NCBI GenBank assembly: GCA_964016885.1
Contig: CAXHJY010001463.1
Span: forward strand, 1-53,191
From: Eledone cirrhosa
Taxonomy: Eukaryota
Direction of reading: 5' to 3'
Length of the DNA stretch: 53,191 nucleotides
Under the pieces are notes generated by a model. It did not search any database and was not told the origin of the DNA. It saw only the letters and a list, made by a program, of their open reading frames with translations. Every line of letters begins with the position of its first letter. Position 1 is the first letter of the stretch. This document shows, one piece after another, positions 1,136 through 49,043 of this stretch. The translations under genes and the position numbers were made by a program.

Positions 1136-1740
1136 GGTGGCTGCAACTCGTTTTTCGAGTACGGCCACTACTTTATATCCATGTAGGAGAACCCCTACCG
1201 ATGCGCTGAACGAATGTGACTTTTTAGTCCAGCCAGCGACTTGAAAACTCTGGTACAAAGACTACACTTGTGACCATTATTGACACATAGGTGCAGGGCC
1301 CATGGTACCATGTGATGACAAGTGCAGAGAGATCTCCAGATATAAAGCAATGCCTGTGCTGTGAAGCTTTTATAGTGAGCAAAGGCACTGCACAAAGCCA
1401 GTCCCACTCTCTTAACCAAGATGATATTTACCAAAAGAAGAACAAGTCAACATCATTGGATACCATCAGGGTTGCAGGTGTTATATCAGAGTTTCCTTCT
1501 CCTAGAATTCTGCCTTGACAAAGGCTAAGGGGTCATCTCTCCGGTGATTTTGGATGGCTATTGAGTCTTAAGAGCTCCCTTGCCCTTTGACAGGTTTTGT
1601 TTTTAGTCCTGCAGGATGTCCAAAGTCACCCTCCTCACCAAGAAACCTTGGTAGGGTTGCCAGTTTAGTCGCCAACGACCCGAACCATGAGACAGGTTGT
1701 ATGGGATACATGTTACCAGTAGCACCAACTGGTGACCTGA
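1136..1740 (-). mobile_element. Non-autonomous RTE-derived retroelement (~605 bp), apparently full-length copy
   Basis: Homologous to 48456-49002, 23318-23588 and, more distantly, 47848-48385. The minus strand has an RTE 5'UTR-like motif (ctaggagaaggaaactctga), encodes [25 protein letters not shown] (like the C-terminal C2H2 finger of RTE/BovB ORFs) and ends gcagccacc followed by microsatellite. Confidence 0.75.
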
Positions 1741-2041
1741 CATATACACATATATATATATACATAATACACATATATATATACATATTCATATACACAT
1801 ATATAAATACATATACACATATATATTTATACATATACACATATATATATATACATATACACATATATATATATACATATACACATATATATATATACAT
1901 ATACACATATATATATATACATATACACATATATATATATACATATACACATATATATATATACATATACACATATATATACATATACACATATATATAT
2001 ACATATACACATATACATATACATATACATATACACATATA

Positions 2042-2887: not shown

Positions 2888-3290
2888 TACATATATATAT
2901 ACATAATATATATACATATATATATATACATATATACATATATATATATACATATACATATATATATATACATATACATATATATATATACATATATATA
3001 TACACATATATATATACACATATATATATACACATATATATATACACATATATATATATACACATATATATATATACACATATATATATATACACATATA
3101 TATATATACACATATATATATATACACATATATATATACACATATATATATATACACATATATATATACACATATATATATACACATATATATATATACA
3201 CATATATATATATACACATATATACATATATACACATATATACATATATACACATATATACATATACATATATATATATATATATATATA
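1741..3290. repeat. Compound (TA)n/(TACA)n microsatellite
   Basis: Directly visible. Confidence 0.95.
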
Positions 3291-47847: not shown

Positions 47848-48385
47848 TCAGGTCGCTCTCGAGTGCTACTGGTAACATGTAACCCAGTACAACCTGTGTC
47901 ATGGTCGGTTCATCGGCGACTAAACCGCCAAACCCACCAAGTTTTCTTGGTGAGGAGGGTGATATTTTGACACCCTTTGGAATGAAATACAAGACCCGGC
48001 AAAGGACGGAGGAACTCAGCAGAGACAACGGCCATCCAAATAGCACCTTTTTTCTTTTTTTTTTTTTTTTACCTGGGAGTGAAAGGCCTCCAGTTGTTGT
48101 CACAACACCTTTCTAAGAGAGGGAAACTCTGAAAAAGAAACTACAGCTTCGGAAGCATCTGATGATGTTGACCAGTTCTCATTTTCGGGTAGTGTTTTCG
48201 ATGCTCAGAGAGTGGGATTGGTCGATTGAAAGGCCTTTCCCCACTTAAAAACCTTCGAAGCACAGGCATTGCTTGCTCAAGATCTGTTACAGGTTCGTGT
48301 GGCTGACCGTAGCTTTAAAGTGCCCCGTTTTCTGTCATCTGACAAGCGATTGCAATACGCTTAGCAGAGTTTGCAACCATCATCC
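47848..48385 (+). mobile_element. Diverged subfamily of the RTE-derived element
   Basis: Same 5' start (tcaggtc...gtgctactggtaacatgta) and collinear blocks cttggtgaggagggtga, ggccatccaaa, gaaactctga, gagagtggga, gcacaggcattgctt; different 3' part. Confidence 0.75.
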
Positions 48386-48455: not shown

Positions 48456-49002
48456 GTAACATGTATTCCAGTACAACCTGTCCTATGGTCGGGTCGTTGG
48501 CGACGAAACTGGCAACCCCACCAAGGTTTCTTGGTGAGGAGGGTGACTTTGGACATCCTGTAGGACTAAAAGCAAAACCTGTCAAAGGGCAAAGGAGCTC
48601 TTAAGAGTCAATGGCCATCCAAAATCACTAGGAGAGATGACCCCTTAGCCTTTGTCAAGGCAGAATTATAAGAGAAGGAAAACTCTATTACACCTGCAAC
48701 CCCGATGGTAAATATCATCTTGGTTAAGAGAGTAGGAATGGCTTTGTGCAGTGCCTTTGTTCACTATAAAAGCTTCACGGCACATACATTGCTTTATATC
48801 TGGAGATCTCTCTGCACTTGTCATCACAGGGTACCATGGGCCCAGCACTATGTGTCAATAATTGTCACAAGTGTAGTGTTTGTACCAGAGTTTTCAAGTC
48901 GCTGGCTGGACTAAAAAGTCACACTCGTTCAGTGCATCGGTAGGAGTTCTCCTACATGGATATAAAGTAGTGGCCGTTCTCGAAAACGAGTTGGCAGCCA
49001 CC
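48456..49002 (+). mobile_element. RTE-derived element, nearly full-length copy
   Basis: Reverse complement of 1136-1716 with a small internal deletion. Confidence 0.85.
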
Positions 49003-49043
49003 ATATATATATGTATGTATATATGTATGAACGGATATGTAGA

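Follow-up and report, generated by a model that had tools for sequence, protein, structure and literature searches.

An xrRNA-like head on LINEs and non-autonomous elements of Eledone cirrhosa, and its likely part in setting the RNA 5' end

The 5' ends of RTE retrotransposons reportedly carry HDV-like ribozymes in Anopheles and twister ribozymes in Schistosoma Perere-3. The conserved 5' segment described here, referred to as the head, shares with the 5' ribozymes of non-LTR elements (HDV-like in R2, RTE and Ingi/L1Tc, twister in Schistosoma Perere-3), as far as the available parts of their descriptions go, its place and its likely job, which is to free the element RNA. It differs from them in having no ribozyme core and in an end that a host exonuclease would make, leaving a 5' phosphate and a leader that is short and varies. 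RTE 5' ends have been described solely with ribozymes in the available text of the relevant sources (PMC5786205, PMC8501958).

A second point of comparison is the xrRNA (Xrn1-resistant RNA) of flaviviruses, whose subclass 1a has a ring of 14-16 nt about its 5' end and withstands Xrn1 with no protein bound. Subclass 1a is marked by a GU before P1, an unpaired junction C, a U·A-U triple, a PK1 of 1-2 bp and a PK2 of 2-7 bp (available sections of PMC8917146, PMC8374639, PMC8571300 and PMC8078501), and in these viruses Xrn1 halts 5-6 nt before P1, precise to 1-2 nt (PMC5760640, in excerpt). Mosquito-borne flavivirus junctions are closed exclusively by C-G pairs (PMC13161572). A 2021 review describes xrRNAs as characterised in viruses only and asks whether eukaryotic genomes have them too (PMC8374639, section 9). 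A literature search that covered few subscription papers and left Repbase aside found no xrRNA native to a retrotransposon in the text portions returned; papers pairing the two subjects were mostly engineering papers and reviews.

An earlier note on this DNA had proposed a functional, perhaps self-cleaving RNA, possibly of an undescribed fold, at the start of an RTE-derived element. The present analysis points elsewhere. The layout seen in the first 56-70 bases of the element is that of a flavivirus xrRNA of subclass 1a. A predicted ring quite probably stops Xrn1/Xrn2 3-4 bases upstream, which would cut out and protect the element RNA.

Heads in the window and the elements that carry them

The window, i.e., the whole stretch of 53,191 nucleotides that was analysed (contig CAXHJY010001463.1), comes from a 3.0-Gb genome rich in microsatellites. 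It contains two complete heads, one of family A (1741-1686, minus strand) and one of family B (47847-47903, plus strand), and these are the only two that a model of 14 animal heads recovers in it. The features are as follows:

1138..1741, minus: entire non-autonomous family A element, ~605 bp
1686..1741, minus: xrRNA-like head of this copy, damaged, one G lost from P3
1742..1745, minus: ATAT leader within the microsatellite flank, putative RNA 5' end (-3/-4)
1740..1741, minus: 5' GU of the head; G1 is predicted to pair with C1699 (PK1)
U2 of the same head, minus: predicted to join A1720 and U1701 in a U·A-U triple as its third strand (positions after the available text of PMC8917146)
1735..1739, minus: 5' strand of P1, CAGGU, whose partner is ACCUG at 1697-1693
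1723..1734, minus: P2 hairpin (4 bp, 4-nt loop), not uniform in length or sequence from family to family
1722..1722, minus: lone unpaired C at the P2/P3 junction, the discriminator of subclass 1a
1700..1721, minus: P3 (UACUGG with CCA[G]UA) and its 11-nt loop L3, which has CAUG at 1712-1709
1686..1689, minus: CAUG, partner strand of PK2, 3 nt past P1
1630..1685, minus: downstream hairpins, the first P4-like, the next of CACCAAG/CUUGGUG type
47847..48385, plus: entire family B element (family length about 540 bp)
47847..47903, plus: intact xrRNA-like head of this copy; P2 CGCU/AGUG, P3 UACUGG/CCAGUA
47876-47879 with 47900-47903, plus: PK2 of the family B head
48456..49003, plus: family A copy truncated inside P3, with an incomplete head
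23318..23586, plus: family A 3' fragment without a head
elsewhere in the genome, G000:C11, about 2921900-2925430, minus: LINE L219, which shares the first 200 bases of family A and not its tail

The two diverged copies on opposite strands, the CAGGU/ACCUG stem, the hairpin with compensatory changes, the UACUGG/CCAGUA stem, the base missing from the 1694-1740 copy and the hairpins downstream are all as the earlier note described them. Its common start is likewise sharp, except that the first conserved base is a G, one before the U that it named. The P2 hairpin exists with its compensatory changes, while the 5-bp form given for it would need a 2-nt loop and the foldable form has 4 bp and a 4-nt loop. 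The pseudoknot between loop CAUG (1712-1709) and CAUG (1689-1686) had been overlooked. Besides the missing G in P3, the 1694-1740 copy has an extra T near 1683; both damage sites are intact among the sister copies listed (29 family copies drawn). The 150 matches listed of the 695 in a whole-window Rfam scan are of microRNA type and fall on microsatellites and one inverted repeat. A near-perfect inverted repeat of 142 bp lies at 44612-44753 and is possibly a miniature DNA transposon.

Families A (~605 bp) and B (about 540 bp) are non-coding. The family A element at 1138..1741 (minus strand) combines the 5' head with the 3'-terminal portion of a LINE ORF, and it has both a C2H2 remnant and an ATGT-type tail. 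The last 177 bases of the family are 95% identical to the LINE L265, whose frame ends in C2H2 fingers, and its first 200 bases recur in L219, a LINE of 3.5 kb that codes for endonuclease and RT domains and ends in a GAT tail. Since L219 shares the head of family A and not its tail, head swapping between LINE lineages is indicated. The exact 5' pattern has 11,826 matches in the genome and its reversed control none, so that at least 11,826 copies of the head are counted here. A third, older family (family C, 20 copies aligned) has the same head. RTE is the presumed clade of the head-bearing elements, judged by their general features.

The 5' ends of the copies are not ragged. Among 30 LINE copies retrieved with an internal query, 15 start at G1, three more within 5 nt of it, seven at 21-45 and five at 150-179; in unselected DNA (59 stretches of 10 kb, 590 kb), six of eight head-spanning pieces start at G1.

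Further carriers, LINEs or SINE-like elements of other animals, were found by a metagenome scan, the contigs being searched with a three-word core pattern. It listed at least 120 matches, and of 121 parsed matches 63 came through a stem filter blind to PK2; the other 58 scored below 7 and were left out, among them chance matches from microbes and worn L120-family copies. L176 is a LINE with an 1135-aa endonuclease-RT frame that begins at the head motif, L104 has the head and an endonuclease frame, and L148 has, by eye, a decayed endonuclease frame. Domain assignments are an APE endonuclease and RT in L176 and L219 and an endonuclease in L104, and microsatellite-type tails were seen. The L120 family is SINE-like (230 bp, 53 copies), with flanks that are random beyond -3. 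Heads of L122, L203, L151, L164, L175 and L134 are also among the metagenome matches listed. The proteins of L176, L104 and L219 are 23-31% alike and stand behind the same head; the head appears to move between LINE lineages as a module.

An expressed octopus RTE element with a C2H2 finger is described in the available part of PMC9115989. Like the bipartite non-autonomous RTE elements of Kojima 2018 (PMC5786205), as far as its available text describes them, families A and B keep the 5' and 3' ends of LINEs and encode nothing. They differ in that the A/B head is shared with L219 and the tail with L265; the portion of that paper available has no mention of the head, and the core words are absent from its supplement. 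The 70-bp head of LP-SINE, Nimb-17_LMi, I-3_DR and RTE-9_CPB (Matetovici 2016, PMC4758252, in part) is comparable as a short 5' module of putative function spread across unrelated LINEs and SINEs. In contrast to the present head, the scallop heads in its supplementary figure S2 start with a run of C and do not have this core.

Two further arrangements were observed. Family C heads occur in a tandem array at L531. Another LINE family of this genome (L061:1790-2090; L544-L555) carries a head of another kind, GC-rich and structured and with a G run that varies, for which there is no Rfam match and no good HDV fit.

The three-way junction and the loop-to-tail pseudoknot

Folded in isolation, the A and B heads have as their minimum-energy structure a three-way junction (P1-P2-P3) with a 5-bp P1; longer constructs and L104 fold differently in minimum-energy folding, which takes no account of pseudoknots. 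Folding energies do not rise above chance (z from -0.29 to -1.88, 10 sequences), and support for the structure therefore comes from covariation. Across 14 aligned heads 93.9% of 280 cells are paired: 100% in P1, 94.6% in P2 and 96.4% in P3, with compensatory changes. Both sides have changed in 10 of 20 pairs. None of 500 shuffles reaches the observed pairing and slid-structure controls give 27-46%, with the qualification that these controls ignore the relatedness of the heads, that the search pattern fixes the core and that related families are non-independent samples. The earlier suggestion that an RTE-type element begins exactly with a functional, covarying RNA structure is supported, and the head is real and structured, and probably functional. 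The HDV-P1-like helix GGUCGCY/GGCGACU put forward at the same time fared otherwise: it has no fixed register, and the best partner lies at offsets from 44 to 107 in the 11 heads tested.

PK2 enters neither the search pattern nor the stem filter. Because the pattern fixes the core and the shuffle control ignores relatedness, PK2 is the fair test of the fold. It pairs in 45 of 56 cells, the best value among 90 registers (mean 20), and at least four pairs form in 12 of 14 heads versus 39 of 120 prokaryotic pattern matches (p=0.0002, one-base shift allowed; p = 0.01 if just seven distinct pairings are counted against two failures). The seven pairings are CAUG/CAUG, CCUG/CAGG, UAUG/CAUA, GCUG/CAGC, UGGU/ACCA, GGCA/UGUU and CCCU/AGGG. 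PK2 is broken in the L134 family (one of four pairs) and has a mismatch in the L175 family (three of four). All five structure tests were passed by three of the 120 prokaryotic control matches, by eye one homologous stretch, and by none of 120 viral-contig matches to a loose pattern. L134, L145 and L155 consist of the head and ~170 bases without a LINE body, twice in L145 amid unrelated ORFs; a broken PK2 is as expected there if these heads were captured and are no longer selected.

Single positions carry the remaining marks, their invariance among metagenome heads being in part forced by the search pattern. The lone junction C is found in 13 of 14 heads by MAFFT column and in 14 of 14 by parse; it is fixed by the pattern for the metagenome heads and is also the majority base in family C. 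The G and C of PK1 are invariant in all 14 heads, and since they never vary PK1 gains no support from covariation and is proposed at sequence level only. Base -1 is T in 82 of 88 own-genome copies, facing the A that follows the C of PK1. For the predicted U·A-U triple, U2 is present in 14 of 14 heads, and by column 13 of 14 have A-U as the second pair of P3. The junction-closing pair is U-A at P1 in 11 of 14 heads and at P3 in 13 of 14. When a long-range A-U pair was examined, the final base of L3 was C in families A and B, and the base past P1 was U, C or G among heads and variable among viral matches too. L122, L167, L203 and L164 have C-G at the P1 junction pair, nearer the viral form.

A structured, conserved head could also serve the retrotransposon protein as a recognition or packaging signal, or act as a translation aid, having converged on a widespread knot of the three-way-junction kind, with the linkers described below as untemplated bases of the reverse transcriptase. 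Non-autonomous elements keep the head, Rfam scores are weak and PK2 is weak in two families, all of which would suit this explanation. Against it, the head is common to LINEs whose proteins are just 23-31% alike, and ~20 core positions agree in register with viral RNAs; we regard it as quite improbable.

Agreement with flavivirus xrRNAs

RF01415 (Flavivirus_SLIV) matches the head itself. By E-value it ranks first in the scan around the 47847 copy and second in that around the 1741 copy; the two score 22.8 and 16.2 bits versus a cut-off of 54.5. The best score in the genome, 29.6 bits among the 64 candidates scored, is below the Rfam gathering threshold; no xrRNA family came up when 12 other loci were scanned with Rfam, and a flavivirus-type version of the pattern has no match in this genome. 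The core pattern does match six viral contigs. In four of these, 10.7-10.9 kb long, the match lies ~350-400 nt short of the 3' end, and one (L069) exceeds the cut-offs of both RF01415 and RF03547 (Flavi_xrRNA). No relative of the L176 protein was found on the viral contigs.

Set in register, heads and viral matches have in common GU and CAGGY, a hairpin that varies, a lone C, then YAC...GUR, CA and RCCUG, and in both the pairing strand of PK2 lies 3 nt beyond RCCUG. A model built from the 14 animal heads only reached 30.6 bits on L290:141-203, a site that the pattern missed and that Rfam places above the cut-off of Flavi_xrRNA. Six flavivirus sites were found in full at 29.7-38.0 bits, versus at most 29.4 in 100 of 120 prokaryotic controls, and the margin of the model over the controls is narrow. 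The second flavivirus copies in L067 and L068 reach merely 12.4 bits with it. A 1a-type motif also occurs in RNA-virus-like contigs that are not flaviviral (L064:1501-1556; L065:1150-1225 and 1497-1552; L114:2703-2767 and 3039-3094), where it lies past a capsid-like ORF or in tandem between ORFs and scores 27.9-37.3 bits with the animal model, with no Rfam match. Two non-flavivirus RNA virus motifs likewise have U-A at P3.

The 1a markers (GU, lone C, U·A-U triple, C after P3 and PK2) are all present in the sequence, and so they are in family C, for which DNA similarity had supplied the 20 copies. The head has in common with subclass 1a the GU-CAGGY start, the 5-bp P1, the variable P2 and the lone junction C, the YAC/GUR base of P3, the CA before the 3' strand of P1 and the hairpin that follows, the loop-to-tail pseudoknot 3 nt past P1, and an RNA end that would lie 5-6 nt before P1. 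By contrast, it stands at the 5' end of a cellular retrotransposon, whereas the flavivirus RNA stands in a viral 3' UTR; it is present as a single copy, its junction pairs are mostly U-A and its Rfam score is under the cut-off. Judged by its bases, the head thus matches subclass 1a on every tertiary marker readable at that level. It is not filed as a member because its junction is not closed by C-G throughout, its scores stay below the Rfam thresholds and its resistance is a prediction. The fold nevertheless fits a described class, which leaves the proposal of a self-cleaving ribozyme of undescribed fold unsupported.

The RNA 5' end and its likely origin

Evidence on the RNA end comes from copies in which a piece of 28S rRNA is fused in sense to the head. 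A search blind to the junction found that 17 of 40 matches to the 28S piece are 28S-element chimeras. One of the 17 junctions falls in a T run and is unreadable; in the 16 others a linker of 2-4 bases stands before G1 (4 nt in 12, 3 nt in three, 2 nt in one). The linkers differ in sequence, beginning with T in nine, A in seven and G in none, and resemble the TA/ATGT flanks around copies. The 28S piece of 11 of the 16 is an older variant whose end was placed by eye; the other five join present-day rDNA exactly, with TAT, ATAT, TTAT, ATAT and ATAT where the rDNA continues otherwise. Since these linkers cannot be target DNA, they are likely the first bases of the element RNA itself, and they could also come from untemplated additions or RNA ligation. 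Read as a leader, they put the RNA end 3-4 bases before G1, i.e., 5-6 nt before P1, in 15 of 16 chimeras, the distance at which Xrn1 halts on the viral RNAs.

The upstream piece had also been considered as a tRNA, a reading rejected for 28S rRNA. At least 17 chimeras are dispersed (L587, L589, L592, L593, L605-L625), 16 of them joined at one recurrent 28S site, which is a hairpin loop in an expansion segment. An inverted piece of the element lies upstream in L558, L573, L577, L581 and L582, with 1-5 extra bases before the head, and in L568 a different rDNA-derived piece precedes a family A head, with TTAT before G1.

Untemplated bases are added by the R2 reverse transcriptase when it jumps, which is what the recognition-signal explanation invokes for the linkers; the likeness of the linkers to the TA/ATGT flanks of copies argues against this origin.

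Ordinary copies give a smaller signal. At -4, 15 of 88 own copies show a TT that puts the microsatellite out of phase, versus 2.3% elsewhere (p=1.5e-9); a set of 73 copies picked by a pattern that favours 3-4 nt leaders was kept out of the leader counts. Target duplications of own copies are mostly uninformative because the copies sit in microsatellites. In the L120 family eight copies have a clear target duplication, and five of these lack a leader; at -1 the family shows an excess of G (20 of 53), as a copied cap could give, and leader type shows no tie to subfamily (p=0.33). The missing leaders and the excess of G tell against the leader read from the chimeras and would suit an internal RNA polymerase II promoter starting 0-4 bases upstream, the head then being an xrRNA-type shield of decapped RNA. 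A promoter role has been suggested for SINE heads derived from LINEs (PMC4758252, available part), and the head of L1Tc is a promoter as well as a ribozyme (PMC3383444, available part). The leaders of the chimeras start with T in nine of 16 and with G in none, whereas polymerase II favours purine start sites, and a promoter leaves the agreement with the 5-6 nt halt distance unexplained. We hold this origin of the end to be unlikely.

A ribozyme of a new or variant class, to whose 5'-OH product the 28S pieces were ligated, deserves the same scrutiny. Ribozymes are known at the 5' ends of RTE-clade elements (PMC5786205 and PMC8501958, in the parts available), and the break of the 28S partner at one recurrent site fits the ligation of cut RNA. 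Neither Rfam nor descriptors give a known ribozyme core: for the two copies there is no ribozyme family among 6 and 5 Rfam matches with E up to 10, and a descriptor of the HDV topology, a nested double pseudoknot, run without a positive control, has no match in A, B, C, L104, L176, L120 or L191 and one poor match in L148. The twister core, with its UAA cleavage loop and L4/L1 pseudoknot (layout from table 1 of PMC8501958, in part), is absent from eight of eight heads, as is the hammerhead core, by a descriptor likewise run without a positive control. An HDV-like reading, including a P2 with GGACA, was rejected, there being no P1.1 and no catalytic C. The putative end moreover varies by 1-2 nt within unconserved flank and lies 3-4 variable bases ahead of the structure instead of at one internal cut, and xrRNA structures account for the positions that are conserved. 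The head is likely an xrRNA rather than a ribozyme, and self-cleavage has very little left to recommend it.

The exonuclease explanation, which we prefer, may be pictured as follows. A copy of the element would be transcribed by read-through from an upstream host promoter, and this RNA would become open to 5'-to-3' decay. The exoribonuclease (Xrn1/Xrn2) would stall at the predicted ring, 3-4 bases upstream of the head, so that a unit-length, protected RNA may remain for reverse transcription. The head would then stand in for the HDV-like and twister ribozymes of other RTE, R2 and Ingi elements. The balance tips, if only just, towards a wider proposition: that a true subclass 1a xrRNA, instead of a ribozyme or promoter, matures the RNA of a widespread group of animal LINEs and SINE-like elements, as the first natural non-viral xrRNA, and that the module also occurs in flaviviruses and unrelated RNA viruses through passage between retrotransposons and viruses.

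The head is a 60-nt candidate non-viral xrRNA that can be tested by one gel, and it bears on the origin of the flavivirus fold. If the explanation is true, RNA of the xrRNA kind would exist outside viruses, and natural non-viral stabilisers would be available for RNA tools. It would add a third route to a defined 5' end of non-LTR elements, besides internal promoters and ribozymes. With more than 11,000 intact heads in one genome, read-through of sense copies could leave stable decay products.
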